64,000 nucleotides of DNA from a virus (taxonomy: Duplodnaviria > Caudoviricetes): positions 32,001 through 96,000 of IMG/VR virus record IMGVR_UViG_3300005259_000074; one strand, given 5' to 3'. A program made the translations under genes and the position numbers. The notes under the pieces are model-generated. The model was not told where the DNA came from. It did no database searches and worked only from the letters and a program-made list of their open reading frames with translations. Positions 12,592 through 45,794 of this stretch are shown here, piece after piece. The stretch's first letter is position 1; each line of letters starts with the position of its first letter.

Positions 12592-13482
12592 ATGTGGAGT
12601 GAAGTGCGAGACATCAAAGGAGAGAACCCCAACGTCACAAAATTCGTCTTCCTGAAGAAGGACGCGGTTGCAGAAGCAGTGCTCTACAAGTACGGAGACT
12701 GCAGAGACAGGACAGTCATCTGCTGTTCCACTCAGTCGGGTTGTCCCGTGGGCTGCGCGTTCTGTGGGACCGGTAAGAAGTTCGTCCGCAACTTGACTGC
12801 GAGGGAGATCACCAGCCAGATCGAGACAGTGCTCCAGTCAAAGCATGTAGATTGCTCGGTCGACGACATCTTCCGCTTCCAGATCATGTTCATGAGCATG
12901 GGAGAGCCCTTCTTGAACATGAAGAACGTGATAACCGCGATCAGAGACATGAACGAGGAGTACGTAGACGTCGAACTCCTGGTCTCCACGATGGGAGCTA
13001 AGTCCGCTACTTTCGAGCAGGACTTGAAGTCTTTCACAGAGCAGTCGCGTCTCATATCGGGAGTGGGCTTGCAATTCTCCATCCACAAGATGATAGACAG
13101 CGACCGGGACCGCCTCATCCCGTTCAAGAACAAGCTCACGCTGAGGGAGATGCGGGACGTCGGCATATTCTGGCACAAACAGACGAAGAGGCCGGTATTC
13201 CTCAATTTCTGCGTCGACGAGGAGTGGTCAGCCTACGAGAGGGCACGTCTGCTAGACATGTTTTCACCCGTGGTGTTCAACTTGACGTTCTCCGTAGTCT
13301 GCAACACGGAGAAAGGCGGCCTCTCTTCTAGGGGCATCGAAACAGCGAAGAAGATGAACGACGAGTTCACCGCTATCGGGTACAACTCGAGGACGTTCGA
13401 CCCAGGTGGACAGGACGATATCGGAGCCGGCTGCGGCCAACTGTGGTTCGTGCAGGATTGGATGAAGAACAGAGGAGAGTGA
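12592..13482 (+). CDS. rlmN: RlmN-like radical SAM RNA methyltransferase
   Basis: CSTQSGCPVGCAFC (CxxxCxxC), FMSMGEP, and C-terminal DIGAGCGQL carrying the catalytic Cys. Confidence 0.8.
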   Translation: MWSEVRDIKGENPNVTKFVFLKKDAVAEAVLYKYGDCRDRTVICCSTQSGCPVGCAFCGTGKKFVRNLTAREITSQIETVLQSKHVDCSVDDIFRFQIMFMSMGEPFLNMKNVITAIRDMNEEYVDVELLVSTMGAKSATFEQDLKSFTEQSRLISGVGLQFSIHKMIDSDRDRLIPFKNKLTLREMRDVGIFWHKQTKRPVFLNFCVDEEWSAYERARLLDMFSPVVFNLTFSVVCNTEKGGLSSRGIETAKKMNDEFTAIGYNSRTFDPGGQDDIGAGCGQLWFVQDWMKNRGE

Positions 13483-13712: not shown

Positions 13713-14725
13713 ATGAGTACTCTAGAAGCAAAGAATTACTGCGCCTACTCGGACGTCTTTGGAATGCCCGTCAAGAGGTTCAAGTGCGAGAAACCAAAGG
13801 AGTCTACCAAGTGCAAGTACTACGAAAGTGACGAGACACCAACGACTCAGATGAACGAGTGCATGCACGAGTCTTTCGGGGTCTGTGCAAGGAGTGCAGC
13901 TAGGAAGGAGGCGTTAGCCGAAGTTGAACTGATGGAGAGACTGGAGAACATATGAACAAGTACCTATCCAGAGCTATAGACAGCATCGAGCGGTTCGAAC
14001 TCTTCATGGTGATCGGAGGCGTACTGACGATCTTCATCAAATCAGCCGTCGATGCAGCCTTTGATCTCGTGCACGAACACACGGGGTTTGACATCATTCT
14101 GATGGTGTTGGGAGCCACAGGGGTCATCTGGAATATCATTCTGATCTACACGGTGTTCTCAAGAGCTCGCAAGTACAAGCGAGATAAGGAAGAGCGCTTG
14201 ATTCTGGAGAAGTTAGAAGATGTGTAAGGTCAACAGGTGCTGGATAAGGAATTTCGACGGTCTCTTCGACGACGTCTACACCTGCACTTGCTCACAAATT
14301 ATCATCAGCAGATCTCCTAACATATTCGACTACGACACGTGTCAACACTTCGTGCAAGTTCCGGACTACGCAGACGAGATGTGCAAGTACGAGGTATCGA
14401 GGCCAATCGTCGGCATACTCTGCGGATGTCCAGAAGCGCAGGACGACGCCGAAGCAAACAAGAAGTTGGAGGAACTGTGAAGAGGAACTTGTGCGGAAAG
14501 TACGGTGATGTGTTCATCTGCGAAGCCGAAGATAGGACGTACGTTCCTGTACGTCCTTCATCACTATTTGAAGACAACCATTCTACGTCTCAAGAAGATT
14601 GCATGTACTACAAGAAGGGTACTCCACTCTACAACGAATGTTACAACTTAGTGAACGGAATAAAGTGCAATTCTAAGAGAGCTAGAAAAGACGCCAGCAT
14701 AGTAGCTATGATAGAAGCTCTATGA
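13713..14725 (+). repeat. Cys-rich mini-protein array C2 (13713..13955, 14220..14480, 14477..14725) interrupted by tagged membrane ORF 13952..14227
   Basis: Cys skeleton; tails RLENI, KLEEL, MIEAL. Confidence 0.8.
13952..14227 (+). CDS. 2-TM membrane protein with tag KLEDV
   Basis: Two hydrophobic helices followed by a basic-acidic tail. Confidence 0.7.
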   Translation: MNKYLSRAIDSIERFELFMVIGGVLTIFIKSAVDAAFDLVHEHTGFDIILMVLGATGVIWNIILIYTVFSRARKYKRDKEERLILEKLEDV

Positions 14726-14763
14726 AGATGAACTTACACAACGAACAACTGGAGGAACTTTAG
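14722..14763 (+). CDS. 13-aa mini-ORF MKMNLHNEQLEEL (array head plus tag only)
   Basis: ATG AAG ATG AAC TTA CAC AAC GAA CAA CTG GAG GAA CTT TAG; ATGA overlap upstream, and the next ATG follows immediately. Confidence 0.55.
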   Translation: MKMNLHNEQLEEL

Positions 14764-15309
14764 ATGGACCGGCCGTACCCCGAAGAAGGCTCATGCGGTT
14801 CTTTGAGAGACTGGTACGTCGCTAGGAGGAACATCATCTTGAACCGCCGGTGTGATGATCCCACTAATTCTTCTAACATACACCCTCTTGTGAAAGAACT
14901 GTGCGTCACGTTGAACTCCATCCCGGGCATTGTGACTGGCTGCATTAGCGGAAAAGAACTCGACCCATTCAGAGTGTGGTTCTACGCGTACAACCAGGCC
15001 CAACTGTTCGTCGTCGCTAGAGCTATCGACAGGCGCTACTGCGGAGCTGCTGCTTGGCGCATGTACGTTGATGCAGGGGACATGCAGGAGTTCGCTACAT
15101 CCTACTACATAGAGGGATTCTCAAAAGACAGAGGCATCTCGTATTCCGACAACGAGCGAGATGAAGTCAGGATTCCACACGTAGTGAAGAACATTAAGAA
15201 ACTCCTTGACGATCAACAATGCGCGATGTACTACGGTTACGACACCGATCAGACACAGATACCGACAGTGGAAGAGCTCGCATCGTATGAAAAACTCGAA
15301 GATTTGTGA
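14764..15309 (+). CDS. phage hypothetical protein with tag KLEDL
   Basis: LNSIPGIVT...PFRVWF...ARAIDRRY. Confidence 0.7.
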   Translation: MDRPYPEEGSCGSLRDWYVARRNIILNRRCDDPTNSSNIHPLVKELCVTLNSIPGIVTGCISGKELDPFRVWFYAYNQAQLFVVARAIDRRYCGAAAWRMYVDAGDMQEFATSYYIEGFSKDRGISYSDNERDEVRIPHVVKNIKKLLDDQQCAMYYGYDTDQTQIPTVEELASYEKLEDL

Positions 15310-17143: not shown

Positions 17144-18532
17144 TTAGTACATGAACACTCTGCTGCCACTTGCCTCAAGAACCGAGGAGGTGAGTCCGTC
17201 GACCTTGATGAAATGGTAATAGTTTCCTGCGCCGAACAGATTGCTCAAAATCCCGTAGCGGGTCCTGACACCGATCCTAGGAGTGAAGTTCTCCTGGCCG
17301 AGAGCCCTGAGCAACTGAACCGGGATGTACGGAGTATATATGATACCCGCATCATACGGAGTTGGTCCCTTGTACCCGAGGAGCGCGTAGTTGCCCATGG
17401 CGAACGTATCCCTGTAGAGGGTGATTCCGCCGTTGCGCATCGTGCCGACCTTGGAGATTCCGACCGTATTCGTGTCGAGGGCTGCGTTTCCAGCCTTGTC
17501 GAGGACGAAGTCCTGGAGTCTCTCGAGGATTGCGCAGACGTTCGGGGAGCCGAAGGCGAAGGTCGCCGGGCCTCTCCTGGACGTGATTGCGATCTCGTTG
17601 GACTTCTGGAGGATCTGGGTGTAGAGAGTGCCGATACGCTCGAGCTGGTTCCTGCCGTCAGCAGAGACCGGGCTCCAGGTCGACACGCGTCCACCTGCGA
17701 TAGCAGCCTTCACCATTTCTGCGAGGAGCTGACGGTCGATTTCCGCCTGGATCTCGTAGGAGATGATGTTGACCATCTCAGCATCGACGTCTACGCCGTG
17801 CATGTTCATCATGTCTTCAGCGAGTTCCAGCGACCAGTGGGCTGCGAGCTTGCGGCTCTTAGCTTCGACTATCGCCTTCTCCATGCTGAACTTGGCCATC
17901 GGCATGTCCTCGCCAATATTCCACCACTCGGAACCAGCCAGAGTAGCGCCCTGACCGTCTTCACCGTAGGTGTTCTGGCCGAGAGCACCAGCAGAACCGG
18001 TGCCAGCGAAGGCTTCCCAGTATGCGCCGGTAGTCGCGTTGCCGGAAGCGCCGGTGAACGCGGAGTCTACGAGGTTGTACCCGATCTCAGTTCCCTGAGT
18101 GACGGTACCCTTGCCGTTGGAGCCGTAGCGCGCGCGGAATGCGAACGCGAATCCAACCGGGCCGTACATCGGCTGAACACCGACGGTGTTGTGGGCGATG
18201 AGCTCGGGGAATATACGCCTCGCGGTCGGGATTACGATCGTGGGCATGCGGGCGTCGTTGGCGCCGTAGTCGAAAGTGCTGCCGAGCTGACCTGCGCCAT
18301 TCGGGAGGCCAGTCGTGTATGCACCGGCCTGCGCACCCATTCCGGCGGCCTGTCCAGCGTAAGACTCGTTGACCTTGTCGAACTCGCGCTGAGTGTTCTC
18401 GAGGACTAGTGCCGTCGAGAGCCTGACTTGCTCCGAGCTGATCTTGGAGAGACCCTCGGCCTCGAGGACCGGAGTCCACTTCTCTAGGACCTTCTCCTGG
18501 TAGTTAGCCGGGAGGTGCTGGTAGAGACTCAT
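17144..18532 (-). CDS. gp23: major capsid protein, T4 gp23-like
   Basis: EKWTPVLE, RRIFPELIAHNTVGVQPMYGPVGFAFAFR, AKSRKLAAHWSLELAEDM, EIQAEIDR, IIYTPYIP, FTPRIGVRTRYG. Confidence 0.97.
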   Translation of the reverse strand: MSLYQHLPANYQEKVLEKWTPVLEAEGLSKISSEQVRLSTALVLENTQREFDKVNESYAGQAAGMGAQAGAYTTGLPNGAGQLGSTFDYGANDARMPTIVIPTARRIFPELIAHNTVGVQPMYGPVGFAFAFRARYGSNGKGTVTQGTEIGYNLVDSAFTGASGNATTGAYWEAFAGTGSAGALGQNTYGEDGQGATLAGSEWWNIGEDMPMAKFSMEKAIVEAKSRKLAAHWSLELAEDMMNMHGVDVDAEMVNIISYEIQAEIDRQLLAEMVKAAIAGGRVSTWSPVSADGRNQLERIGTLYTQILQKSNEIAITSRRGPATFAFGSPNVCAILERLQDFVLDKAGNAALDTNTVGISKVGTMRNGGITLYRDTFAMGNYALLGYKGPTPYDAGIIYTPYIPVQLLRALGQENFTPRIGVRTRYGILSNLFGAGNYYHFIKVDGLTSSVLEASGSRVFMY

Positions 18533-27257: not shown

Positions 27258-30200
27258 TCAGAGTCGATCTAGTTTCTCGTCCATGCGAGCTTCTCTGCTG
27301 AGACACACGTAACCACTCTTAGCATTCAACACGTGCTGACAACGTACATTCTCGAAGTATGGGGATGTTTCTTCCGGCTCAAAGAACTCACACGTTGACA
27401 TCCGCGGTCCCATGCTGATGAAAGCTTCACAGTAGTACGTTCCGTCTTTGTATATCCTGCAATAGTTCACATTTTCCTCTGCTATATGCTCTCCAAGGCG
27501 TTCATAGTCGATTTCTCCAGTCGGGCTTCGGCGTTGGTGCACCTGTGTTCTTCTTTAGAAAAACCTTTTCCGTTGGACCTCCACTTACACCGATTGTACT
27601 GCTGGTACCCGGACAGATGGGACGCGTTATCGTTTTCGAAATATGAACAGTCTTTCATGTGAGGACTAAAGTTCATGAATCCTTCACAGATGAAAGAGTC
27701 TCCTGCTATTCTGCACATATTATCTTTCACAGCTCCTCCAGTTTCTTCATTAACAATGAGTCTTCTATTGCTGACCAACACGTGCAGAAGTTATCGCGAT
27801 TCCGGTGTTTGCAGTCTCCGTGACCGTTTTCGAAGAACTTGCAACTGCGGATGTCTAGTGTTCTATCCCACAGCACCGTCCTACACACGAAGAAAACTTC
27901 AGTGGGGTCTGATCTCTTCGACAACATCTCACAGAGGTTACTCTTCATAATTCTTCCATCTTTAGCAATGTCTGGGCATCTCTCTGGGCTTTTTCACACA
28001 AGCAATATATGACATTGCCGCTCCCTTGATAAACGCACTTTCCACCATTCCCCTCATAGAAATCGCATTTATCCAGAGATGCTAACACACTAAGTCTACA
28101 TAAGAATTCAATTTCTGCAATTACGCACAAGTTATTCACAGCGTCTCCATCTTGGCTGCTATGAGTGAATCTTCGTTAGCATTCCTGCACATACATAAGG
28201 AGTGCGACGCCTCATCATTCTCGACGTAGTGACACCTCCAGCCGGCCGCGGCCCCTATCCCATCTGGTTTAAAGTACTTGCACATGAACATAGGAGTGAT
28301 ATTCGGATCTACTTTTGGCGACGCTGGAAAGATACCGTAGTTGTTGCACTTCTTTACGGCTTCTTGTTCAGTCTTCGACCGGAGCACCGCAGTGCACCAG
28401 AAAGAAGGCTTCGCGAAATCTTCATATCCAACGCACGTGCAGCAGTTCGTCATAACTCCTCCATGTTCCGGTCTATCTGAGCGTCCACGTTAGAGCAGAA
28501 GTGAGTGAAGTCCCAACGTCCGATTGGTGGATTGTCCCGCTTCACAGCGAATTTGCATTCTTTCGTGTCGTGAGTGGATGTCTCCTCTCTGAAATCACAG
28601 TTGGTATTGATTGGCTTAGGCTGTGGGCGCGGGGTTCTCCAACACATGTATTCTCCCGATACCTTCAAGCAGCGGTTCATATGTCCTCCAACTTTTGGAG
28701 CAGATTCTGTTGCTCTCTAGAGATGATCGCCGCTGGGCACAAGCAGAAATCTCTGTGGTTTCCTACTGTCCACACGCACCGGCCCTTCTTCTCTTCGAAG
28801 TAGACGTATGGATCGCACTCTTCAAAGAACTCACAATCTCTTATTCTGACACCGACGAACACGAAAGACATGCAGTACGTCTTTTCGTTGAGTACGTCGC
28901 ACATGTTGAATTTCTGAGTTGTCATATGTCTTCCATCTTCGCTTCTAGACGAGCGTCGAGATGAGCTTTCTCGCAGTTGCACAACTTATAGAAGTCGTTC
29001 TGTGCCCATGCACAAGTGCCTCTAAATGTTACCCACTCTTCGAAGAACTCGCATTCACTGAGTTCGTCTGACAACTTCGCAGTGCACTTGAACCACCTGT
29101 CATCGGTGAGTTTATCAGGATTGATGTGCATCAACTTACAGAAGTTCATATGTCCTCCAACTTAGACGATAGCAGGCTGTCTTCCTGTGCTTCTTCGGAA
29201 CAGCAGTACCAGTACTCGTCTTGGTGATAGCACTTCTTTGCACTCGCGGCTGGTTTAAAGAACTCGCACAGTTGACAATAGTATTGTGTATGGTACGAGG
29301 GCTTGCAAAAGAAATCGATTTCGGAGCTACCGTTGAGGTTGACGTAGGCTACTGAGCAGAGGTTCTCCTTCATATGTCTTCTAGCTCCAGCATCAACCGT
29401 TCGTCTTTAGTAGCTTCAGGACACTCGCACATGAGATTCATACTGTCCGTCCACACACAACTATTTCCAGATACATATTTGCTCTTGAAGAAACAACACG
29501 TCCTCTGTGCTACTCCAAAAGACTGCCCGTGAAATTCATTGTACAGCTGATTAGCTTGATGCACTCTCATAGAGATTGGACTTCCACCACATAGGAAGCG
29601 AATTTCATCGTCAATATCAGTTTTAAAGCCCTTGCACAAGCTCTTCCTTGCTGGATTCATATCTCATCTAGCCTCGTTGTCATCTTCGCTTCTTCTATAG
29701 CTTCGCGGCAGTCGCAGAACTCGAGAACGATCCCAGACGACCACTCACAACTGTTGGCGTTAGTGCTCCCTCTCCGAAAGTACTTACAGTCCGTCACAAA
29801 CACCACGTCTCCTCGAGACAGCGCAGACGTCTTGACTAAGCCGCCGCACCATCCATGGTGCGTGCAGAAGTTCTCCTTCATATGTTCTCCAGTGCGTGTT
29901 CAGCCAGAGCGTCTTCTCTTGCCGCCTTACACCAGCAGTCGTTCCCATCGAAGGCTTTGTCGTGCCGGCACCGCGGGTATGGGTAGTCAAATCCCTCGAA
30001 GTACTTACAACCGCTAGTATACTCCAACGAACGTAGAGCGTGACACCGAAACGTGATGTTACCTTTATTTTCGTGCACTTCACAGAAATTCCTCATATCT
30101 CTTCCAACTTCATGTTCAGGAGTTCTTGATTCCTCACTTCTGGGTGTCCACACTCCGTCATTATAAGTCCACGCTTCTTCCATCGGCATTCCACGCCATT

Positions 30201-31237
30201 CGGCTCCCACTCAGCTTGGCGAAAGTGATCGCACTCTCTCATGTTATACATCGTCCCAATGCATGGGAACCAGATGTTTGAGATGTTGAACGCATGCACA
30301 TCTATCGCCACACAGTGGTTCATAAGTCCTCCAGCTTCGCCAACGTTGTCAGCTCTACTATAGCTTCATCTTTGGCTGCTTGGTTGGAGCACCTGTATTC
30401 TCCCATGTCTCCTGGAGCAATCTTGTACCGACACCTGACAGACAGCGTGTCACGTCCACATTCACCGTGAGAGCATTCTCTGAATGATCCCGCATAACAG
30501 CGAAAATCTCGGTTTTGCTCTCTAAAGTTGTCTACGTGCACGCAGTTCTTCTTCATATCTCATCCATCTTCTTCATCAGTGAGTACTCTTCATAAGCCAT
30601 TTCACATGCGCGATCACACGAGCACTCTATCGTCGGAGGCGCCGCGCGAACGAGGACATAGTTGAATTTAACATGTATGCACTGTCTGTTAAACGACTTC
30701 TTCTTATAGAACGTGCACTTCCTCGCGAGACGAGATGAATTCCCGGCAGTGCATCTGTTCCAACCCCAGCTCCCTCCCGTTGTTTCGTGCTGGCACATGT
30801 TCTTCATATGCTCTCTATGCCTCTGAGGATCGTCGTGTTGACCCAGTTCTTTCTGACAGCACCGGTGTTAGTGCACCGTCCTCTACACTTGAACTTACAC
30901 GACTTCTTGTGATCTTCGTCGAGTGATGTGAAATATTCACACGGGTTGTCGCGAGTTTTCCAGCAGAAGGACCACCAGCTCTTCGGAGGCTTTATCATAT
31001 CTCCTCCATCTTATCGACAAGGCCAATTTCATCTTTCGCTATTGGGTTTGTGCAGTCTCCGTCAAATTGTAAATCTGCATTATCTACGCACATTCGTTGG
31101 TCGAACCACTCGCACTTCTTCATTTTCTCGATCAGCTCATCTCTGTTGTAAAGACCTACGCGTAAAACCTTACACCCACAAAAGATATGAGTATAACCTG
31201 GATATATGTGCACTTCAGGTTTCATCTTATATTGCAT
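27258..31237 (-). repeat. Cys-rich mini-protein array E, 17 CDS (27258..27470, 27482..27730, 27727..27948, 27945..28139, 28136..28453, 28450..28680, 28677..28925, 28922..29149, 29146..29373, 29370..29660, 29657..29881, 29878..30096, 30093..30323, 30320..30556, 30553..30807, 30804..30998, 30995..31237)
   Basis: All members carry the Cys skeleton and the tag; 15 of 16 junctions are 4-nt ATGA/GTGA overlaps. Several starts were reassigned to the overlap. Confidence 0.9.
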
Positions 31238-31258
31238 ATGTCATTTCTTTCTTTATGT

Positions 31259-31345
31259 TAAAATAACACGCGAATGATGTTTGTAAAGGGAACTAGAGGA
31301 TTTTTCTTCAGTTTCCTTTACATCTTCATTTCAGATTGTATTATA
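31259..31345. promoter_or_regulatory. divergent early promoters
   Basis: Minus strand TTCCCTTTACA-N16-TATTTT; plus strand TTCCTTTACA (TTTACA at 31317) -N16-TATTAT. Confidence 0.6.
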
Positions 31346-31366
31346 CTTATGAAAGGAAATAAGTTT

Positions 31367-31612
31367 ATGTCAGATGGGAAAACATCATTCGCTGTGTTCA
31401 ACATCGGTGGATTTATGACGTTCTGCATTGCAAATGGCCGTCAACACGATTGCACTTATTTTGAACCCACTAAAGATCTATCTGTTTGTAAGTGGCAGAA
31501 GAGCACTCCGAGTCTATTCTGTCTAGAATGTCGGTGTAGACCAGCGAGAGACGCGGCCCAAGACCAATATTTCGCTGAGAGAGACTTAGAGCGAAAATTA
31601 GAGGACATATAG
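31367..31612 (+). CDS. Cys-rich mini-protein (tag KLEDI)
   Basis: FC...DCTYF...CKW...CRC; start reassigned to MSDGK. Confidence 0.75.
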   Translation: MSDGKTSFAVFNIGGFMTFCIANGRQHDCTYFEPTKDLSVCKWQKSTPSLFCLECRCRPARDAAQDQYFAERDLERKLEDI

Positions 31613-31620
31613 AGCTCACC

Positions 31621-32052
31621 ATGGGAATGAACTACTATTACGTAGCAACTGAAGACGATGTTCTCCGCATCATGGACGACGACGACCGGGTGAGGCAGGA
31701 CAAAATCCATATCGGAAGAAGCGCGCACGGCTGGATGTTCACGTTTCAAGCTCGCTCGAAGGCGGACTTGACCGACGCGTACTGTGGTATCGAGCACATC
31801 TCGTCGTTTCAAGAGTGGAGAGACGTGTTCGCTAAGATCCCGGGCGTCATCATCGACGAAGACAACCGAGATTATTCAGTTGAGGACTTCTTGACTTTAG
31901 TTGAAGAGACAAAGGAGTACGAAATTCAAGACTACGTGATGACGTTGGGAACACGCTTGAGTAAGAACCACTATGATGCGTACGGTCACGTCGAGATGAA
32001 TGCTTTCAAAGATGCCGAGGGTTGGTGCTTCATCACGGAGGATTTCTCCTGA
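31621..32052 (+). CDS. conserved phage hypothetical protein
   Basis: MGMNYY...IHIGRSAHGWMFTFQ motif. Confidence 0.75.
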   Translation: MGMNYYYVATEDDVLRIMDDDDRVRQDKIHIGRSAHGWMFTFQARSKADLTDAYCGIEHISSFQEWRDVFAKIPGVIIDEDNRDYSVEDFLTLVEETKEYEIQDYVMTLGTRLSKNHYDAYGHVEMNAFKDAEGWCFITEDFS

Positions 32053-35000
32053 TCATATCTCGTCCATCTTGTCGATAGCGTCGGCCTCGGCGTGCGCTAG
32101 AGAAGATGCGCACATAGTGCGAGCTGGATCACCGCGGTGGATGAAGAAAGACACACACTTACCGTCTTTGATGTCAGGTTGGAAGAACTCGCAATCTCTT
32201 CCGTCAGGAGATTCGCAGAAATAGCGGTAGAATCCCCAAGATCGTTTTTTGACGCACGCAGTCATAATTCCTCTAGTTGTTCTAGCGCTATCATCTCTCT
32301 GTTGTTGCAGATCTCCCCGTCACATGAAAAATACGTGCACACCGGATAATCGAGGTCTCTGTTGGGTTTGTACCCGGTACAGTTGCGAGCTCGCCCTCTG
32401 ATGAGACACTTCCACTCACCTAATTGTGGGTATGCGTAAAAGAATATCTCCGCGTAGTCTTTCATATCGCCTCCAGACGAGACAACACGTCACAGTCGCG
32501 GTGCGCTTTTCCCGATAGACAGTGCATTATGTCTGGGTTGTACCCGCACTCGTAAAAAGAAGGGCGAAGTCGGGAGTGGAACACCCTCCCAGGTTCGAAG
32601 TACTTACACCGTTCTTGGCCACTCGCTAGACCACAGAGGTATTCGCCGTCGTATTTCCTGCAGTAGTTTGTTGATTTAGTGCTCGTGTTGTCCACAGTGG
32701 CCTCCATCACGTTTAGATTCGATCATATGCCCTCTATCTTCATGAGTAGTCTAGCGTCCGGTGATACACACTCGTACTTACCAAACAACGGTTCATACAC
32801 AGCATTGGCGCATATATCCAGATCTTCATTCTGTCGTAAGAAACCGGAGCACTGTCTCATAGTCTTGTACCGAGGAGAACACACTCCGACACTAGAAATT
32901 CCGCCACACAATATTGTGCTACCACCATCTGAGTACATTAGACACTCATTCATCATTACATCATCCTAGTTCACAAGTTGTCGATGCTAGAGTAGATACC
33001 GATGTCGAGGATATTTCTCAAGCAGGGGTCACACAGAGCCGCTTCCATGGGCATCCTGTGGGTCTCCTTGTCTTCGAAGAACTCAGTCAAGTCTTTTGGA
33101 GCGCCGCACATGAAGCATGTTGGAATCGGATCTACTATGATCCTCTCTTTCATCTCTTGACACAGAGTCTGCAAACTTTTCTCATACAAGCGTTCAAAAG
33201 TAGACACGCCACTGAACATCTTGTGACCGATGTCTTTCTTCTTAAAAACGCACATTTTACAGTACTTATCGTCTCCACCGCATATTCTGTCTATCAAATG
33301 GCACGGAGTCGTCTGCTGTATCACGCTGGAACTGAGAGCTATGTGATCCTTCTTCGTCTTTGCAAATGGCTGCAACACTGGAAAACACGCTTCGCAGAAC
33401 CTCTGATAGCTGGCTCCGGCGAACTTGAACTCAGCTTGATCGTCCCAACACGATTTCTTTCTATGACAGTTCTCCCATTTATCATACTGAGTCCGCTCTA
33501 CTAGCCCCCTAAGCACCTTTGACATCGACACATCGGCAAATGGAATGCCCGACATGTTGAAGCTCTCTCCGTCGAATTCTATCTGGAGTTTGTCCCTTCC
33601 AGTGCGACGGACTCCTTTGACACCCCGGTCCTGGTCTGAGAAATGGTCATTCATGCTTGCGTTGCAAGCTACGACATCACCGACTTTCGCTATGCGCGTG
33701 TTACAACCACTGGAAGGAAAGCAGAAGTTGTTCGCCGACAACGACAGTGCGATATTGGCGTCTATGGGAAGATCGAACATGTCGTTTATCGCGTCTAAGA
33801 ACTGTAGTTCTTCGTCAGATATGGGATTACGAGACAAGATGAGCTCTGCAGCTAAAGCTGGCATGCTCCTACTGCCCAAGTCTACTACGAATGACGTCGT
33901 AGAGCTGTTGCTGACGAATCCTCTCCTCGTCTTCATATCTCCTCCAGGTTCTGAGTCAGTATCGCATCGTAGTTGAGACATTTCTGATCTAACGAAAAAT
34001 CGTCATCTGTTATCTGTCCTGTCTTAAAATTTGAGGAAAAGATGCAAGCGTACATGACGTTCTTCGGGCATTGCTGTGGGCATGGCATCGACATTATATC
34101 GTGATAACAACGATATTCTCCACTGTCGTCTTTCCTGCAGTGCATTCTATATCCCCTCCATCTTCATATCGGCCAACCTATCTGCGACAGCTTCGGGACA
34201 CCTGCCCCCGTGGAACTCAGCTCGGATGTCTTCGTACATACAGGTACCTACCAGAGCCGCTGATTCTTTGAAGTTCGCGCACTTTCGCTGGTAGTCGCGG
34301 CGATCTAAGCAATAATACCCTCCGCAGATCCACTTAGACCAAGCAAACTTCGACCTGGTGTTCTCCCTGCATAAGTTAGATTTGACACCGCTCATATGTT
34401 GTCCAGTTTCATCTCTATTTCCGCGTCTTCAAGGGCCGCTTTGCACACGCACACTCTCATGCCGAACCACTCGCGAGGTCCTTGATGGGAGAATCTGCAC
34501 TTATCGTATTCTCCCTCGCGCGGTTTGAAGAACTCACACGCTGACACATCGATATACTCACCAGATCCTCTCATTTGGGTCCCAGGACTCTGGCACATCC
34601 CGTACATTCCCTCGTCATTCCGGTGTATCCAGCATAAGTTAGTCATCATATCTCCTCCAACTTCGATGCGATATAACTGTCGGCCCTCGCTTCTTTAGAA
34701 TTGCAGTATGCGTACCCTCTCATGTAGTACGCGCAGATATTCTCCTTACCTTCTAGAGATGCGTAGACACACGCTTGGAACTCCCTGACTGGACCTCTTA
34801 GGTGCGAATCCGCGGCATAGTATTCCTTTTTGTACTTAGCAGTGCAGGAATAAGAGTCCGCACCATATCTATCATCATTAAACTTACAGTAGTTAGACTT
34901 CATACATCCTCCAACTTCGAGATGCTCACTCTGTCCCAGCGCGCTGCCTGACACTCGCAGCGGCAGCTGACAGGATCGTAGTACGTGCACACCCCATAGA

Positions 35001-38000
35001 GCTGGGAATCAGTTTCGTAGAAGTCACACGGTTTCTGGATCTTGACTATAGCGCGTTCCATGACGAGGTGGTTCCTGTCTTTCTCGTCGACAAACACGCA
35101 GTAGCACTCGTCTTCTGACTTCACGTACGTGCAAGCGTTGTACTCTTCTCTCACAGCTCCTCCATCTTCATTATCACCGCTGCATCAGGATGTTGGCACC
35201 TGCTGTAGTACTCCCGGGAGTTCACATCTGTCTTGTCGATGTGTTCGTGGTGCCCTCTGCGGTAGCGGCATAGCTTGTACTCCTGGTCGGCGAACATTAC
35301 ACCGCTGGATAGGCGGCTGATCTCGAACATCTCGCACTCAGCTTGTGGCCAACCGTGGTCTTTGCACACTGCGATCTCGTCGATGAACTTACACAAGTTC
35401 ATAAGTCCTCTATCTTCTCTGTTATTTTCAAGTCTTCCCAAGCTTCTACGCTGATACAAGTGGCTGGACACTTCCGATGTCGGCAGTCGAACCACTTTCC
35501 ATCCGCCCTGTCGAAGTACTTACACATGCTCATGAGTTCCCACGCAGTGCAGGTGTACTTGCGTTCGATTTCGTGTCTGGCGCAGAAGTTGACTTTGATT
35601 TCTTCGTTCATATCTTCTCGATGGCTCTGGTCAGCAGTTCGTCCGTCATCGCGTCTCCGTTCAGACATATGACGTACCCGATGTCCCTCGCGTAAGAGTA
35701 GATGCAATCCTTAGAGCAGTTCTTTCCTTTCATGAATGCGCTGTATTTGCAGTATCTGTCTGGAGGCATCCCGGTGCTGTAATGGTCTTCGTATTCTTCG
35801 ACGGAGATGTTCCTACCGACACACATGAACTCATCGTCGACTGAGACGCACAAGTTGTCTCCTCTGCTGTAAGGATTTGACCTCATGTTCATAATTCCTC
35901 TAGTTTCTCAGCAAGTAATGCATCTGTATGTGCATCTTCACAAATACATGTAAAGAAACTGTTGTACATGCACGATGAATTCCACAATCTTCGTTTGAAA
36001 TAAGTACAATCTCGCTGTTCATCAGTGTACTCACAAGAGAACCTCAAACTATACTCTCGTGGTACCATCATCAAACGAATTAACTTGCACTTGTTCTCCT
36101 TCATAACTCTTCTATCTTTGCGTTGACTTCAGCCTCCTCTTGAGCTGTCTTGTGATTGCAGTACTCATCGTATTCTCCGCTGGTGAATTTACACCATCTT
36201 GAAGAACTACTGTCAAAGTACTTGCACTTCCAGTTGATGTCGTCGGTGCAATAGAATCTCTCAGAAGTTTTATTGTAGTTGAGCATCTTCACACACTTGT
36301 TTTCCTTCATAGCCTTTCCATCACCTCCACCGCCTGTGATTCTCGCTGTGCTGAGTAGCTCCTGCAGTACTCGTTGTGCTCTCCATCCGACTCGCGGCAA
36401 CAGTGGCGGTAGTCCCTGTAGTCGGGTGCGTAGTAGTCGCAGGGTTTCCCGCGTAATCGATAGCAGTAGAAATACCACTTTCCATTTACTACGACACTGT
36501 GACATCCATTCTTCTTCATATCTTATCTAGTCCTATGCCTATCTTAGCTTCGTCGCACTTACAGAGTCTTCCGACCCCTGTGATGAATAATTTTCCGGCG
36601 TATATGCACATCCCGCGGCACTTTAGCTTCTTGCTCCGGACGTAGTAGTCGCACTCTGTCGCCCGACCTTTCGCGCGAGTCAAGTAATTGGTGCAGTACG
36701 TCCTGCCATCAGTTTCATTCAACCGACACATGTTCACGTCATATCTCCCACATTCGGACGTCTATCAGCGCTTCTCTGTTGGTACACCTACACGACACTC
36801 TGCTGAGGCGGTCCACCTGTTTGCTGTGGACGCACGCGTTGGGGAATTCCCCATCTTCGCTGAAGTAGCAGCACTCCTTAGGATCAATGAGCATCACCGG
36901 AGCTCCACACATCAGAGATTCATCGTTCATGTTCTTCCACAGGAGACTTCTGACGTCACGCATGTCACAGCCCTCTCATCTTCAGCTCTAACAGTGCTTC
37001 ATCACTAGTGCACATGCGAAAAGGAAGAGTACTATCTATGTTCTTCCCGTACTCGCACACGTTGTCGTAGATCAAATAGTGCCTGTCCATCTCTTCATTA
37101 CAGCATCGCTCGAAGTAATCGCAGGTGGTTTGTTCAACGTTGCTACTGCTGATTATCGCGCCGCACAAGTGAGGACCGTCCTCGTTAGTTGAAAGGCAGT
37201 AGTTCACAGCTCCTCCATCTGTTTGTCTAATATAGCGTCTTTACAGAAGCAGGTGTAAGTAGTGTTAGAACTTGGGGTCTCGTATCCTTCGTATGCGCAC
37301 TTGCGAGTCCCGTCTTTCCACGATAACATATTGTTGAGTTGGTAGAAATCGCATACTAACCTAGAAGATGTGATCCACCCGCAAGTCGCTTTCCCATTTT
37401 CAGATATGTGACAGTAGTTCACAACTCCTCCAGTTTCAGGTCCATCTTCAGCGACGGACAGCAACATACCACAGTAAAATTCGAATAAGGAAGACAAAGC
37501 GCGTACTTACACGGTTGTCTGTGGTTCAACAAGTTGACTCTATTGATGACTTCGCAGTAATCGCAGAGTTCTATGCCGCGAGCGGAGTCGTAGCACCCCG
37601 AAGTACATCGGTACACACCGGCTGACTCGTAGCATGCTATCTTCATAGTTCCTCCATCGCCCTCTCCAGCTTGGCTTCTACACAAGAACACTGGAAATTC
37701 CTGTTACCGACTTCTTCTGCATGCTTACAAAAATCAGCGACTCGCTTCCTTTCGAAGAACTTGCAGTCCCTTTCTTCTCCGTCGTGAATCGGCAGCGTTG
37801 GTGGGAACCGCTTCAGATCGTAATCGTGGAACACGTGCCTGTGGCATTCCCCACTGGAAGAACACAAGTTGTGCAGTATCATAGATCCTCCACTGCGTTG
37901 TCCATCTGAGCGTCTTTACACGAGCAGAACACGTGACACGAGTCACTGGTGTCTGCGTGCACGCAGACTGGCCTCAACATGAAGGTAGAAACACCACCTA

Positions 38001-39588
38001 GGTCATCGTAGTACTCGCATTCATGATTCTTCATAGCGAGCAGCATGCAGTAGTACTTTCCATTTATCGCTTTAGAGCAGGCGTTCATAGTTCCTCTATG
38101 TTGAATTCGACTGCCGCGCTGAGGATTGCATCGCAACTGCTGCACCTATTCATCATCTTCCAGCCTATGTCGGAAGAGACGTCTACTTCGAAAGCGCACC
38201 CTAAGTAGGTCACGTACTTGATGTGGGTTGAAGATGGTTGTTCTACCGCTTTTTTCCGAGAAAAGGGATCGAATTCACATGGTTGAGATAATATGTTTTT
38301 CGCCATCTCGTGTCGCTTAGTGCAGTAAGCCACTCGCGTGGTGTTTTCGCGCTCTATCTTGCAGTAGTTCATCATAACTCTTCCATCTGTTTGTCTAGTA
38401 TAGCTTCTTTGCTATTGCACAGAGCAGCCGTACCTCTTAGATTTTCGTACATACACCTCTGTATCATCTTACTGAAGATTTCTCCTGGTTCATAGTATAC
38501 ACACTCACAACTACCTAATATAGTTTGACAGTAATAAGTCTTATCGATCAGAACGCACTTGTTGTCTTTCACAACCTCTCCAACGCATATGACAGCTTAG
38601 CTTCTTTCGCCGCTTCTTCGCAATAGCACTGGTGCCCGTGGCAGTGGAGACAGCCGTTCTTGTCATCGCCACGAGACACGAAGTACTTGCACTCCTCTGC
38701 AGCCATGTCAAAGAACTCTGACTTGCGCCAGCACATCTCCCTTTTTACAGAGCACATGTTGATTAAACGTTTCACAATTCCTCCAGCACGTCGGCAATTG
38801 GGTCTGTTGCAGCGATAGCGACGGGATTTTTACACACTCTAATGTTGGGGTTCGATTTAAGTATCCCGGCGAACTGACACCAAGACTTGTGGGACTTCTT
38901 GAAGAACTTACATCCATCCCACATCGACATTCCAGATAGTGAAACGCACTTCCATCCAGCGACCCGGTCGTACTTACACATGTTAGTCTTCATATCTCTT
39001 CAATCTTCGCTGCGGTGATGGCTTCTTCGCAAGTGCACAACTTCATGCGCCTAACTCCAGATAAATTCTCGTATATTAACGTCTTCGTGTGTGCGCACAT
39101 TACCCACCACGTAGTGGGATTCCGATAGTCGCACGCCCCTCGCGAAGTCAGATTGACACACAATGCTCTACCTTCTTCGTCTATTTTACAGTGGTTCATA
39201 TGTCTTTTATCTTAGCTTCGAGACACGCCGGCTCACAACGACACACATAACCGCTAGATATCTGTACGCTAAACTTGCACTTCTCCAGACTCATGTCTGA
39301 GTACTCACACTGACTCATCGAGTAGAAACCAGTCCCAAGACACACGAACGCGTCTCCAGCAGCTTCGCAGAGGGTGTAATCGCACTTGTGCTCTTCTTCA
39401 GAGAACTTTATGGCTGTTCCACACTTGCATACGTACCGAGAGTCCCTGTGCCACTCTGCATAAAAGCACTTGTTGCAACCGGTATCTTGCTGCACGTAGT
39501 GGACGCACTCCTTCTGTCCAGCGTCTTTGACACTACAGTAGTTGCCAGTCTCGTTCCTGACGCACAAGTTGTTTGGGAGCTCCAACAA
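32053..39588 (-). repeat. Cys-rich mini-protein array F, 28 CDS (32053..32265, 32262..32465, 32462..32710, 32723..32956, 33933..34145, 34147..34395, 34392..34649, 34646..34903, 34900..35154, 35151..35402, 35399..35611, 35608..35892, 35889..36104, 36101..36310, 36307..36519, 36516..36737, 36739..36963, 36965..37207, 37204..37422, 37419..37646, 37643..37882, 37879..38088, 38085..38375, 38372..38572, 38569..38775, 38772..38993, 38990..39199, 39196..39588)
   Basis: Cys skeleton and tag in every member; near-continuous overlap chain, interrupted by 32971..33936. Confidence 0.9.
32971..33936 (-). CDS. GFVSNSS-leader protein with Cys-rich C-terminal part and tag SIDNL
   Basis: Start reassigned to MKTRRGFVSNSSTTSF at the ATGA overlap; several CxxC motifs. 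Confidence 0.75.
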   Translation of the reverse strand: MKTRRGFVSNSSTTSFVVDLGSRSMPALAAELILSRNPISDEELQFLDAINDMFDLPIDANIALSLSANNFCFPSSGCNTRIAKVGDVVACNASMNDHFSDQDRGVKGVRRTGRDKLQIEFDGESFNMSGIPFADVSMSKVLRGLVERTQYDKWENCHRKKSCWDDQAEFKFAGASYQRFCEACFPVLQPFAKTKKDHIALSSSVIQQTTPCHLIDRICGGDDKYCKMCVFKKKDIGHKMFSGVSTFERLYEKSLQTLCQEMKERIIVDPIPTCFMCGAPKDLTEFFEDKETHRMPMEAALCDPCLRNILDIGIYSSIDNL

Positions 39589-39605: not shown

Positions 39606-39640
39606 CTATAATCTACACCACAATTGACATTTGTAAAGGG
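39606..39640 (-). promoter_or_regulatory. early promoter heading array F
   Basis: TTCCCTTTACA-N16-TAGATT; a divergent TTGACT-N17-TAGTAT lies on the plus strand at about 39663-39691. Confidence 0.65.
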
Positions 39641-39711: not shown

Positions 39712-40008
39712 GTGAAGAAGTTATTGTTGACTCCGGAAGAAGACGCCGTGTTAGATGAGGCGTTCACTCGGATAGCTGATGTCCTAGAAGTCGCAGTATG
39801 CTCGTGCGATCCCGAAGTCGAGAGCGACGAGGGTACTCGTAGAAAAATTGATCGAGTGCTCCAATGGTTTGTCGCAGAGGGGTTCTTCTTGGGCTTCATC
39901 TCTCGTGTATTAGAAGAAGAGAGAATTTACGCCAACGGAGTGTATCTAGCACCGATAGAAGTGACTATAATGTTCGAAAGCGGAGCGACAATAGTCGATA
40001 AAATATGA
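39712..40008 (+). CDS. hypothetical protein with tag IVDKI
   Basis: AGGAGG RBS, GTG start. Confidence 0.7.
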   Translation: MKKLLLTPEEDAVLDEAFTRIADVLEVAVCSCDPEVESDEGTRRKIDRVLQWFVAEGFFLGFISRVLEEERIYANGVYLAPIEVTIMFESGATIVDKI

Positions 40009-42315
40009 TCATGGGGTTAGACTACATCTACTTAGAACGGGGGAGGGGACCTGCGTACAGCATCTTCGATAAGAAGATGAAGTGTCTTGGTCTCTCAGGT
40101 AAGTCTATCCCAGGGTGCAAGTTCTATGTCAGAAAGAAGAAGCTCATCCCCTTCTTGGTACTCAAACTACTGCAAGTGAAGGAGGAAGATCGGTGCACTC
40201 CTTTCGAAGTGGGTGACCTAGCCGACATCACCTGCGAGTTCCACAGAGAGAAAAACACTTGTGAAAATCCCGAAGTCAAACTGGAGTTTGCCCTAGAAGA
40301 GGTATGACTGTGTTGAAAAGTAAGCGCGAGAGCTTGTGTAAGATTGGAGATGGGTACTATTCGTGCAACTTTGAGTTCAGATTCTTTGACGACTGCGTCC
40401 ACTTTGAACATCTCGACAAAAGGCACATTCCAGGCGTCTGTAAATTCTTTAGGTCAGTCGTAGACACTAACACTATGAAGCTGAGATGCATATGCTCGTG
40501 TCTCGAAGCGGCGGCCGCCGCTGAATTGGAGAACTTGTGAGCGAGAACTTCTGCCGGCTCAGAGAGACAGGATACGAGTGTGTTGGCTGTGCTGTCTACA
40601 ACAATGGTGGGTTAGGTTGCACATTCAGGAAATCCGCACTTGGGTCGCAGTGTTCATTCGTCCGAGTTGATGTCGTCGAGCTGTCAGAATGCAAACATGT
40701 CATGTTCTACCACTGCGGGAGTAGAGACGCTCAGATCGAAGCTAAACTCGAGGAAGTCTGATGATCTTGAAGAACATGTGTCAAACGTATTTCAACGATG
40801 GAGTGGGAATGCTAGGCGGAATTTGTCCGCTCAAGGTGAATGATACTGGGTGTGTTCATTTCATAGCGTTCGTCGACGTTAATAAGAACATCTATTGCAT
40901 GCACTTAGGAGTCGCTGGCAACTGCTACTGCTCTAAAGCGATCAGAGAGAACACCACTCCTGACATGAGAACACTCCAAATTCTAGAGGAAATGTGATGG
41001 AAAACTGCTGCGTCCCTAATAGAGACGGAACATTCAAGTGCACTGCGTACGCTCCCATATCAGGCAACCACTGCAGGGTGTGCAAGTACTACGAGTCATG
41101 GTACTTGATGTACTTCGGAGAGTGTAAACACCTCTGGAGGACTAACGCAGGATCGCTCACTCGCTGCGAGTGCACTAACGAGTGGGCGCGCATCGGAGAG
41201 GCAATGGAGGAGATATGAGCATTCCCAAATCGACGCTGCGCATCGACGTATACGACACGCACAGACGGGTCCCGGTTGAACTGATCGATCCCATGTGCGA
41301 GCAGATGGTGCAACTAGAAGAAGAGGGTATGCTGTTGACCAACAAGTTGGGCATCACGCCCGGGCGTCTATTCTCCGCTGAGTCGTTCAGGAGTGATGAA
41401 TTTGGTCTGACTGCTCCCGAAGATTCGGTGTTCTTCGCGCTGATGGACGATCGCGTGCTGGCGGGATACTCTCTGTACAGGCACAACGCAGGCAGGTTGA
41501 GGATAAGTGCGCTGTACGTCGTCCTAGAGTACCGGGGACGAGGGAACGGCCGCAGATTGCTAGAGTGCGTGTTGGCCCACATCGAGGAACACTATCCGTG
41601 TTCCAGCGTGGAGATCGGAGTCATCGCTAACAACACCCGAGCTCTGAAGTTGTACGAAGACTTAGGTTTCACAGTCCCGACTCACTACACGTTCATGAGA
41701 TCGAAATGAACTGCTGCCGCATACTCAGAGCGATAGAACCGTGCGAAGAGTACCCTCGTGGGGAGATTGAGACGTCCTGTGGTGCCGAAGATGATTTCAG
41801 GTCGTGTGAGCACGCCTTTCTAGCTGAAAATGATAGGTGCATGCACTGGTGTTTAGGGTACGACAGCTGTCGGTGTCATCAAGCTATCATAGATAATCTG
41901 CCAAGAGACATCAAAATTTGGTTGAAATTAAACGACATATGAAAACTAACGAATGTTTATATGTTATATTCTTAAACGGAAGAGGCGGGTATTGGTGCAA
42001 TGCAGCTCTCGCGCATAGCGCCGTCAGCAAAGAAGTGACTTTCAACGGTTGGATAGAGCGAATGAACCACTGCGAGGGTTTCTCACTAGAAGAGGGAAAC
42101 ACTTTCTGCAAGTACTTCAAGGAGAAGGAGACGACGTGCACTCACCGAAGATTGAGAAAAGAAGCTCGCCTCCTTTACAAATTAGAAGAACTGTGACGAG
42201 AGAGGAAGAGATCATCGATGAATGTATGATGACTTTGCTAAAAGAAGCTTTCGCAAAGGCGATAGATGAAATTACAAGTGATATGGAAGCAGATGATAGA
42301 CTAGAAAAGTTATGA
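40005..42315 (+). repeat. Cys-rich mini-protein array G (40005..40307, 40304..40540, 40537..40761, 40761..40997, 40994..41218, 41706..41942, 41939..42196, plus Cys-poor tagged 42193..42315)
   Basis: Skeleton, tag and overlaps; interrupted by a GNAT gene. Confidence 0.85.
41215..41709 (+). CDS. GNAT family acetyltransferase
   Basis: ISALYVVLEYRGRGNGRRLL (motif A) and NNTRALKLYEDLGF. Confidence 0.88.
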   Translation: MSIPKSTLRIDVYDTHRRVPVELIDPMCEQMVQLEEEGMLLTNKLGITPGRLFSAESFRSDEFGLTAPEDSVFFALMDDRVLAGYSLYRHNAGRLRISALYVVLEYRGRGNGRRLLECVLAHIEEHYPCSSVEIGVIANNTRALKLYEDLGFTVPTHYTFMRSK

Positions 42316-43643: not shown

Positions 43644-45794
43644 ATGGCATCTGTAAGCACACTTGGGGCACCCGGCGTCGCTATCAGGGAGATAGACCTC
43701 TCGCAGGTCGCTCCGGCGATACAGGGGACATACTGCCTCGTTCCGGGTTTCACCGACCAGGGTCAAGAATTAGAACCCCTGGTGATCAACACGACCGACG
43801 ACTACACCGCCACATATGGTGAGCCAACTAACGAAGCCGAACGCTACCACTACTACGCTTCGCAGTCAGTCCTCTCCAACGGCGGCACGCTGATCGTCGC
43901 GAAGCTTCCCTACAACAACGTCATCAGCAAGAACTACAAGTTCGTCGGGCTGAACGTGGACACTGGGACTGCTATCACCACTGCCGCTCCGGCGTATCTT
44001 CGTCCTTTGACAGGCTCTACCTACGGTTTCACGAAGTATGCGGCGATAACAGCGTCTTCTGCGACTAACATGGCGACCAGCGGTTACGACCAGATCGTCG
44101 CTGGTGGAGACTTCCCGACTGTCGCTTCGTCTTACGACTTCGTGGTGATCGACGACTCCAAGTCGAGGATCAGTGGTCCCGCTTCTAACGAAGGCATATT
44201 CGTAGCGATCGTAGATCCTTACGACGCGATGAACGTCCAACGTGCTCTCCCGAGTCCGTCCGACGATGACGTCATGGACTGCATAGAGGGTATCAGCTAT
44301 CCAGCTGGAATAGCTCTCAGCGCTTTCATGACTCCCCTCACAGGAGAGTACAAAGGATCTTCTCTCTCAGAAGATGTCGCGAGACAGTTCCCAACTATCG
44401 TTTACGAGACAGGCGGCAACAAGCTCAATCCAGAGTACAGCCAGTACCTCGGACTCGTAGTCTGCAGGATATTCACCGACTCCAACTCTCAAGGCTTGCT
44501 CAATGCTAGCATCTTGGAGGCGTTCGTCGGCAGCATTCACAAAGGCAAGAGGGACTCTATCACCGGTCAGTCTGTCTACTTAGGCGACTTGGTCAACGCT
44601 GGCTCTAAGTACATCAAGTTCTACAGGAACGAGACGCTCGCATCTCTCTTCCCAGTGGACTCAGACACAACTGTGATAGATAAGTCTAGCTCAACTTATC
44701 CGCTCCTCGGGTTCACCGACGCAGAGAGTGTGAAGCTCGTCCAGGGCACACAGGTCGTGACTAACCTCAACCTCGCTTTCGCCAAGATCAGCAACCTCGA
44801 CGAGATGCAGGTCGACGTAGTAGTCGACGCCGGCGTGTCTACTATCGCTCAGTTCTGCGACGACACGACTTCCGGCTCGCTGTTCGACCCGGTGCTGGAC
44901 GCAGACTCCGGCGACGTCCCTCCGATCACCTCTTCTACGGCGATCGCGACTTGGTGGAGTGTCGTGACTGCGATGGAGCAGTTCTGCAGCAAGACCCGCA
45001 AGGACTGCATGGCGATCGTAGACGTCCCGAGGAACTTAGTCCTCCAGGGGAACTCGAAGCTCATCAGGAAGACTGCGCCTAACAACACGTTCGGCAACAC
45101 CATCGCACCGTGTCTGAGGTTCGTCACGGGTCTGAACAGCTCGTACGCAGCGATGTACTCCGACTGGTTCTACGCACTCGACACCTACTCCGGCACGCAG
45201 TTCTGGATGCCCCAGACTTGCAAGGTCGGTGGAGTGTACTGCTTCAACGACTCGGTCGGGAACATCTGGGACGCGCCAGCAGGTCTCAACCGCGGCGTCG
45301 TATCGGGAGTCGTGGACCTGGCTTTCAACCCAGGACAGAATACCGACGACGTGCAGCTCTACAGCAAGAGCATCAACTACGCAAGGAAGTACCAGCTAGA
45401 TGGGTTCATCGTAGAGGGCCAGAAGACAACGCAGGCAAAGAACAGCGCATTCGACAGGGTCAACGTGCGCAGGCTCTTCCTCAGGTTGGAGAGGCTCACG
45501 AGAGCTGTCGCCCGTTATTTCGTATATGAACCCAATAACTTGTTCACTCGCCGTCGGTTGGTAGACACACTCAAGCCAACGTTCAACGCGTTTAAGGCTG
45601 CTGGCGGTCTGTACGACTACCAAATCCTGTGTTCTGAAAAAAATAACACGGCAGAAGTTATTGACCGTAACGAGATGAAAGTGGCAGTTCTCCTCAAGCC
45701 AGTTCGCACCGCGGAAATGATTGAGGTAGATTTTGTAGCAACACGCACGGACGCTAACTTCGAGGAGATCATCCAGCAGGTGACAGCCGTCTGA
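43644..45794 (+). CDS. gp18: contractile tail sheath protein, T4 gp18-like
   Basis: PGVAIREIDLS, IWDAPAGLNRG, SAFDRVNVRRLFLRLE, FVYEPNNLFTRRRL, VIDRNE...KPVRTAEMI. Confidence 0.95.
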   Translation: MASVSTLGAPGVAIREIDLSQVAPAIQGTYCLVPGFTDQGQELEPLVINTTDDYTATYGEPTNEAERYHYYASQSVLSNGGTLIVAKLPYNNVISKNYKFVGLNVDTGTAITTAAPAYLRPLTGSTYGFTKYAAITASSATNMATSGYDQIVAGGDFPTVASSYDFVVIDDSKSRISGPASNEGIFVAIVDPYDAMNVQRALPSPSDDDVMDCIEGISYPAGIALSAFMTPLTGEYKGSSLSEDVARQFPTIVYETGGNKLNPEYSQYLGLVVCRIFTDSNSQGLLNASILEAFVGSIHKGKRDSITGQSVYLGDLVNAGSKYIKFYRNETLASLFPVDSDTTVIDKSSSTYPLLGFTDAESVKLVQGTQVVTNLNLAFAKISNLDEMQVDVVVDAGVSTIAQFCDDTTSGSLFDPVLDADSGDVPPITSSTAIATWWSVVTAMEQFCSKTRKDCMAIVDVPRNLVLQGNSKLIRKTAPNNTFGNTIAPCLRFVTGLNSSYAAMYSDWFYALDTYSGTQFWMPQTCKVGGVYCFNDSVGNIWDAPAGLNRGVVSGVVDLAFNPGQNTDDVQLYSKSINYARKYQLDGFIVEGQKTTQAKNSAFDRVNVRRLFLRLERLTRAVARYFVYEPNNLFTRRRLVDTLKPTFNAFKAAGGLYDYQILCSEKNNTAEVIDRNEMKVAVLLKPVRTAEMIEVDFVATRTDANFEEIIQQVTAV

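Follow-up and report, generated by a model that had tools for sequence, protein, structure and literature searches.

The 64,000-nucleotide window analysed here (bases 32001-96000 of the 262,470-bp IMG/VR virus record IMGVR_UViG_3300005259_000074) carries two long minus-strand chains of small genes, in which most stop codons overlap the start of the following gene and nearly all of the encoded proteins end in the same short peptide, referred to below as the tail or tag. These chains are probably (we put the likelihood at roughly 0.7) polycistronic arrays of tandem origin, headed by early promoters and encoding a lineage-specific family of six-cysteine mini-proteins, with gene junctions that are read twice, once as peptide and once as a translation start signal. 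This reading is carried by codon choice at the gene ends, which separates the constraint on the peptide from that on the Shine-Dalgarno (SD) sequence overlaid on it.

Organization of the two chains

Chain 1 (Table 1) comprises 27 small genes encoding proteins of 66-96 amino acids (aa), a 130-aa two-domain fusion and a 321-aa non-family gene. Its 28 junctions have stop-to-start distances of -4 nt in 23 cases, +1 nt in three, and +12 and +14 nt in one each, amounting to 29 nt of intergenic DNA; in chain 2, 15 of the 16 junctions lie at -4 nt and one at +11 nt. Over both chains, a 4-nt ATGA or GTGA stop-start overlap is thus found at 38 of 44 junctions, with a 1-nt spacer at three and spacers of 11-14 nt at the remaining three. 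An earlier note on this DNA had described chains of 17 and 24 genes with almost no DNA between them: the intergenic total of 40 nt in 11.5 kb agrees with this description, as does the count of 17, and the 24 correspond to the first 24 genes (39588-33933) of a chain that continues to 29. The longest unbroken run of 4-nt overlaps returned by one algorithm is 16 genes in the window; the first 50 kb of T4 give a run of 4.

Nearly every small minus-strand open reading frame (ORF) from 27258 to 39588 has K-(L/M/I)-E-(E/D)-(I/L) as its ending, with ATGA or GTGA at the stop, and a tail of the form [LMIV][ED]x[ILVM]-stop is present on 43 of the 46 chain proteins (26/29 in chain 1 and 17/17 in chain 2). 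The earlier note took most junctions to be of one type, in which L-E-E-I-stop contains GGAGG and the stop overlaps the next start. The overlap is as general as it proposed, but exact GGAGG within the last five codons is found at only 17 of the 44 junctions; an SD core (GGAG, GAGG or AGGA) is present at 28 (64%), and the others have only a purine tract, e.g. AGAAGA.

Table 1. Positions of the chains, their promoter-like heads, and selected junctions and genes in the window.
Feature	Position	Strand	Description
Chain 1	32053..39588	-	29 co-directional genes, 7,536 nt; from chain walk
Chain 2	27258..31237	-	17 small genes (64-105 aa), 3,980 nt; from chain walk
Type junction	34646..34660	-	TTG GAG GAG ATA TGA (TTGGAGGAGATATGA); L-E-E-I-stop, GGAGG and overlapping ATG of 34392-34649
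Promoter-like head of chain 1	39608..39640	-	CCCTTTACAAA (-35 TTTACA), then GTGGTGTAGATTAT
Promoter-like head of chain 2	31260..31290	-	exact CCCTTTACAAA, 16-nt spacer, TATTTT
First gene of chain 1	39196..39588	-	two fused family domains, internal junction lost
321-aa non-family gene inside chain 1	32971..33936	-	ATGA-overlap start, IDNL-stop end, then 14-nt spacer
Gene in chain 1	36307-36519	-	70 aa; one of two genes at the site of a 134-aa longest-ORF call; from chain walk
Gene in chain 1	36101-36310	-	69 aa, internal ATG on ATGA overlap; from chain walk
Two genes between the chains	31274..32052	+	opposite strand to both chains
Family member between the chains	31274-31612	+	ends KLEDI, then TAG
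Tail-less gene between the chains	31621-32052	+	no tail
Divergent chain	39712..42196	+	junction format as in the minus-strand chains; some untagged genes with ATGA junctions without SD
Mini-ORF	14722..14763	+	MKMNLHNEQLEEL; 13 codons, family-like head and tail with nothing between; ATGA-overlap start

Peptide and start signal in one set of codons

When the tagged junctions of the whole genome are aligned, they read AAR NTR GAR GAN NTR TGA, with GGAG starting at -9 in 42 of 96. Leucine codons at position -4 end in a pyrimidine in 6% of cases, against a background of 38%, and at position -3 GAG outnumbers GAA overall by 69 to 50. The tagged genes were split by the next start into those where it overlaps or lies within 8 nt (n=101) and those where it is at least 9 nt away or where no co-directional gene follows (n=38). 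The peptide pattern is kept in the second class, and the two classes differ in the codons that encode it. Of the start-adjacent tails, 58-73% have an SD core within their final five codons, GAG and GAA stand at 61:28, and G and A at the third base of codon -4 stand at 60:34, whereas in the tails without an adjacent start the corresponding values are 13-20%, 8:22 and 8:23 (Fisher tests: SD core, P = 3e-6; GAG versus GAA, P = 9e-5; third base of codon -4, P = 3e-4). Family members taken by themselves show a similar GAG:GAA trend, 49:23 versus 4:8 (P = 0.03), and the 9-14 nt spacers hold a GGAG or AGGAG of their own at the usual distance.

The tail survives loss of the SD at chain ends, ahead of spacers and where the stop is TAG or TAA, and 23 of 54 tagged non-family proteins have no adjacent downstream start. 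Because the tail peptide is kept without the SD where no start follows, it must be maintained for its own sake; and because late and structural genes of the same genome carry different tails at their ATGA junctions, the overlap does not force the motif. The peptide is therefore the primary constraint, and the SD is written in by synonymous choice only where a start adjoins. The idea that a single junction serves as peptide end, SD, stop and start is borne out, codon choice showing selection on the SD layer precisely where a start adjoins; the further claim that this role explains the spread of the tag is not supported, since at the 38 gene ends without an adjacent start the peptide persists without the SD.

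In the arrangement we propose, the last four codons NTR GAR GAN NTR and the TGA are read both as the end of a helix and as a start signal, with a GGAG-type SD, obtained through G-ending synonymous codons, placed 5 nt upstream of an ATG or GTG whose TG forms the first two bases of the TGA stop. This is dual coding of a peptide motif and a start signal on one codon set in about 100 genes of a single genome. It comes with a built-in control, in that the peptide occurs both where a start follows and where none does, so that synonymous sites suffice to tell selection on the mRNA signal from selection on the protein.

Among the uncoupled tails, GAG makes up 27% at position -3 in a small sample, against 52% in the genome background, which suggests that SD-like sequence may be avoided where it is not needed. 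At the late-region genes 20175, 21624, 21956 and 42963 (all on the minus strand), which start with ATGAGCAAGT or ATGAGTAAGT (M-S-K) on ATGA overlaps, the tails of the upstream genes are untagged and have K as their last residue; the M-S-K start looks like a separate N-terminal shared leader.

The protein family and its C-terminal helix

An iterated hidden Markov model (HMM) recovers 112 family members in the genome, concentrated in the window, of which 100 are tailed. They share a head like M-K-x-N-x-C, five or six conserved cysteines including a C-x-(F/Y)-(F/Y)-E motif, and a C-terminal stretch of some 15 residues that forms a helix, with the approximate consensus (D/E)-A-x-(L/I)-x-x-K-(L/M/I)-E-(E/D)-(I/L). 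Pfam and PHROGs contain no family matching the members. In the AlphaFold model of the protein encoded at 35889-36104, built with 45 paralogues as input (predicted local distance difference test score 91), the tail is a single C-terminal helix spanning residues 56-70; as modelled, the tag is the end of a conserved C-terminal structural helix.

At internal positions the tail pattern has a frequency of 0.8%, predicting about 3.6 occurrences among 440 gene ends, versus 139 observed (P ~1e-174). Some 50 ORFs that escape the HMM carry it as well, among them membrane proteins and proteins of 170-400 aa. Replacement of the body of a family gene with head and tail kept was considered for these and rejected, the tagged non-family proteins having no family head beyond the A forced by ATGA.

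A tandem origin is supported by the positions of the paralogues, the best paralogue lying at most three positions away for 17 genes, where 6.0 are expected (maximum 16 in 1000 permutations). Recent duplicates were not found among the family gene bodies, none of which are near-identical, and the best paralogue pair scores 45 bits. Descent would account for the uniform junctions more simply than an assembly of cassettes, the genes being paralogues within a single family of about 112 members and the tail being the family helix. On this account, the junction format would have been established by tandem duplication and kept by selection on both the peptide and the start signal.

Relatives and gene turnover

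A megablast search of the 12-kb array region against cultured phages gave no DNA match, a helicase-based scan of viral contigs found no relatives, and a word-indexed protein search matched only the proteins of this genome. An exhaustive HMM search gave 77 family hits outside it, most with the tail. Four relative contigs were compared with the window: L002 (14.7 kb, JGI 3300033121), and L005, L007 and L011 (ENA GROS21 samples). Related phages are present in ENA BUCK21 samples as well. Together these have 4-nt overlaps at 50 of 63 junctions and the tag on 62 of 68 genes, and L002 holds an unbroken run of 18 overlapping genes. The fusion at the head of chain 1 is kept in a relative protein (P0083, 124 aa, 46% identity), and the 321-aa gene has an orthologue in L002 with 54% identity.

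L002 is syntenic with the window from a helicase through both chains, with orthologues 35-86% identical and about 80% of slots colinear. The window has two genes that L002 lacks (W36965 and W34646), and L002 has two that are missing from the window (L7080 and L10508); two further slots, those of W32262 and W29878, are occupied in L002 by genes without detectable similarity; and W36101 and W35889 are swapped in order, each tail moving with its own body and all of the surrounding junctions remaining canonical. The new junctions created at these whole-gene differences are mostly canonical on both sides. The best L002 relative of W33933 is apparently at another slot, where a frameshifted cassette that the gene calls omit (about L002:4665-4889) matches it with 53% identity over 36 aa. 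In L005, L007 and L011, anchor genes are in order, gene content is more different and gene order more scrambled, and the junction format is unchanged.

Several details of these contigs are recorded for completeness. The frame of L002:4665-4889 changes midway, with an N-terminal half like W33933 and the tail EAIDDI-stop in another frame, either a pseudogene or an assembly error. W33933 and L2738 were considered as a swap and not counted, their 29% identity being near the family background. An apparent 10-nt deletion breaking a cassette of L011 relative to L005 and L006 is a run of 10 N in the scaffold (L011:4708-4717).

The differences from the four relatives are whole genes in register, and so appear non-random with respect to the junctions, though at 35-86% amino acid identity their end points are not mappable to the base; the random breakpoints that the earlier note named as grounds for refuting its model are thus not what is seen. 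In a rival model, the junction would be a universal adaptor, by which any tagged gene would fit any junction in an integron-like store without recombination sites, the benefit spreading the tag to unrelated proteins. A 15-nt adaptor would then combine an address helix with translation of the next gene, in-register recombination at junctions, within the genome or between co-infecting relatives, would swap genes without a recombinase, and unrelated proteins would have become tagged by capture. If true, whole genes could be exchanged without a recombinase, a site or loss of operon expression. The window-only and L002-only genes, the W36101/W35889 swap, the non-homologous replacements, the displaced W33933-like gene and the scrambled contigs with their unchanged junction format are all of the kind that such an adaptor would produce, as are the non-family proteins, membrane proteins included, that sit in chains with the same junction, the sharing of k-mers between junctions at 1.7-2.5 times a codon-permutation null, and the existence of a mini-ORF consisting of head and tail only.

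Against it, tails that no start follows are kept although they have lost the SD, and the 23 of 54 non-family carriers mentioned above are of this kind; tagged non-family proteins in general share no part of the family head except the ATGA-forced A. Exact in-register matches between junctions are short (median 7 nt, maximum 20 nt), there are no recent duplicates, and since some 80% of slots are colinear despite the divergence of the orthologues, turnover is slow relative to sequence change. Survivorship of those events that spare their neighbours may add to the in-register pattern, and could alone explain the in-register insertions and deletions. We regard both the adaptor and the capture mechanism attached to it as unlikely. 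The pattern fits a tandem family with occasional in-register gain and loss of units, in which rare recombination between equivalent junction positions would add, remove or swap whole genes, and does not fit an active self-assembling cassette store. In sum, what the earlier note observed is confirmed and its interpretation is supported in part; the self-assembling cassette array was an overstatement and is weakly supported, and the arrays do not establish a new mobile-cassette mechanism.

Transcription and translation of the chains

Within the window, exact minus-strand copies of CCCTTTACAAA occur only at 39630-39640 and 31280-31290, the heads of the two chains, and the chain 1 motif, including GTGGTGTAGATTAT, is kept at the orthologous chain head in L011 (L011:2150-2200). 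Its TTTACA resembles the -35 element of T4 early promoters. Promoter-like and terminator-like sites inside both chains show no excess over chance. Looser CYTTTACAWW copies follow several chain-terminal genes, e.g. those at 9559 and 15309.

Translation of the chains most likely proceeds by termination-reinitiation along one early transcript, judging from the architecture and from published ATGA pairs (PMC6728339). In tests of overlapping pairs, 13 of 14 ATGA/TGATG pairs were strictly coupled, with a variable contribution of the SD (PMC6728339). By analogy, ribosomes ending at each TGA would re-initiate in place with the assistance of the SD, so that a single promoter would suffice to keep the whole 4-7.5 kb early mRNA covered with ribosomes. 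Junctions that lack an SD core would need termination-reinitiation. The arrays offer a compact test bed for a termination-reinitiation relay over 17-29 cistrons.

The alternative is packing without coupling, the arrays owing their form to compaction and shared ancestry, and each gene being initiated independently at its own SD on open mRNA. The junction mRNA is indeed the least structured part of the gene (minimum free energy over 40 nt of -4.0, versus about -6.3 kcal/mol elsewhere), the SD core at 64% of junctions has the spacing of the free-standing SDs of this phage, and one of five tested E. coli ATGA pairs was initiated de novo (PMC6728339). However, the genes that follow the 36% of junctions without an SD core are conserved and intact, untagged ATGA junctions inside chains also lack an SD, and strict coupling was the rule among the published pairs. 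The mini-ORF at 14722-14763 is also hard to explain unless upstream translation has a role: the only such ORF in the genome, it has its GGAGG 8 nt ahead of the ATG at 14764 with which the following gene begins, and although a single case, it suggests that there can be value in retaining a junction as such. We consider independent initiation doubtful, and retain the coupled, dual-read array as the preferred reading.

Several points nevertheless weigh against that reading. No SD core of any kind is present at 16 of the 44 junctions (36%), and in SD strength the tagged junctions exceed the other overlaps of this genome by no more than a modest margin (median -6.0 versus -5.2 kcal/mol, P = 0.02). 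The junction RNA is open, with no occlusion of the start of the kind proposed for E. coli pairs (PMC6728339), so that independent de novo initiation is possible and strict coupling is not implied. Coupling is deduced from the gene architecture and, by analogy, from the published ATGA pairs (PMC6728339). Finally, the gene models come from our own ORF rules together with a chain walk (from each stop to the overlapping start), and not from a trained gene finder.

The least probable reading by far, that the tail is the mere translation of GGAGG, a fixed spacer and ATGA in the upstream frame with no function as a peptide, takes account of the frame fixed by ATGA (NNG-GAG-GNN-NNA giving x-E-(E/D/G/A/V)-x) and of the purine-ending leucine codons at position -4 (94%, versus 63% in the background), but it is largely refuted by the split on start adjacency, and it leaves unexplained the T in second position at codons -4 and -1, which specifies hydrophobic residues that an SD does not require, the near parity of GAA and GAG overall (50 versus 69), conservation with a helical pattern reaching 11-15 residues upstream, the retention of the tail with loss of the SD at TAG and TAA stops, at chain ends and before spacers, and the different tails at other ATGA junctions of the genome.

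In T4, the RegB nuclease cuts GGAG in early SDs. Profiles for RegB (PF10715) and RegA (PF01818) had no match in this genome, but the positive controls were likewise unmatched, so that this negative carries no weight.

Phage setting and gene models

The genome was typed as that of a T4-like phage, with a gp23-type capsid protein (17144-18532), a tail sheath protein (43644-45794) and a gp44-like clamp loader (59236-60159); the capsid protein shares no more than 37% identity with its counterpart in any cultured phage. A sulfatase-family protein and two radical-SAM-like proteins are encoded among the small-gene arrays (6917-8503, 12592-13482 and 55385-56458, all on the plus strand).

Choosing genes by ORF length alone missed many family members, and the chain walk was used instead. 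For example, the longest-ORF rule gives a 134-aa ORF at 36101-36505 on the minus strand, which the chain walk resolves into the two genes listed in Table 1, and further family members are given wrong starts by such rules in the same way. Annotation by ORF length should therefore be expected to mis-start or lose many genes of this type, e.g. 36101-36310 and 36307-36519.

Comparison with known systems

The coupled overlapping pairs studied by Huber et al. 2019 (PMC6728339) resemble the arrays in being co-directional, in their 4-nt overlap and in having, at most junctions, an SD in the 3' end of the upstream gene. The arrays differ in that 11-18 overlaps follow one another where the published cases are pairs, and coupling is here a prediction from the architecture; in that the SD occupies one fixed register inside a peptide motif common to about 100 genes; and in that the junction RNA is open, whereas that of the E. 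coli pairs is proposed to be occluded.

The PeSL cassettes of modular shuffling are likewise found in T4-type phages as blocks of small accessory early genes with a repeated boundary sequence, and whole genes are inserted, deleted or replaced between relatives. By contrast with these cassettes, which have a Sigma-70-type early promoter and a stem-loop terminator between ORFs, the arrays have neither between genes; their repeated element lies in coding sequence and combines tail, SD, stop and start in about 18 nt, of which about 7 nt match exactly, and their turnover is slow relative to sequence divergence.

Integron cassette arrays share the alignment of promoterless small genes behind one upstream promoter. 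However, the tyrosine recombinase profile PF00589 is unmatched in the 262-kb genome (the control being positive in 14/14 genomes), and there are no attC-like hairpins, predicted structure being lowest at the junctions with no excess of hairpins in the chains; moreover, the array cassettes are paralogues of one family and not unrelated genes. With tandem paralogue arrays, the chains share homologous members and similarity between neighbours, without the recent duplicates. The arrangement is thus an extreme variant of overlapping coupled operons, of tandem paralogue arrays and of the shuffling of hyperplastic regions in T4-type phages (PMC2839356, PMC4122927).

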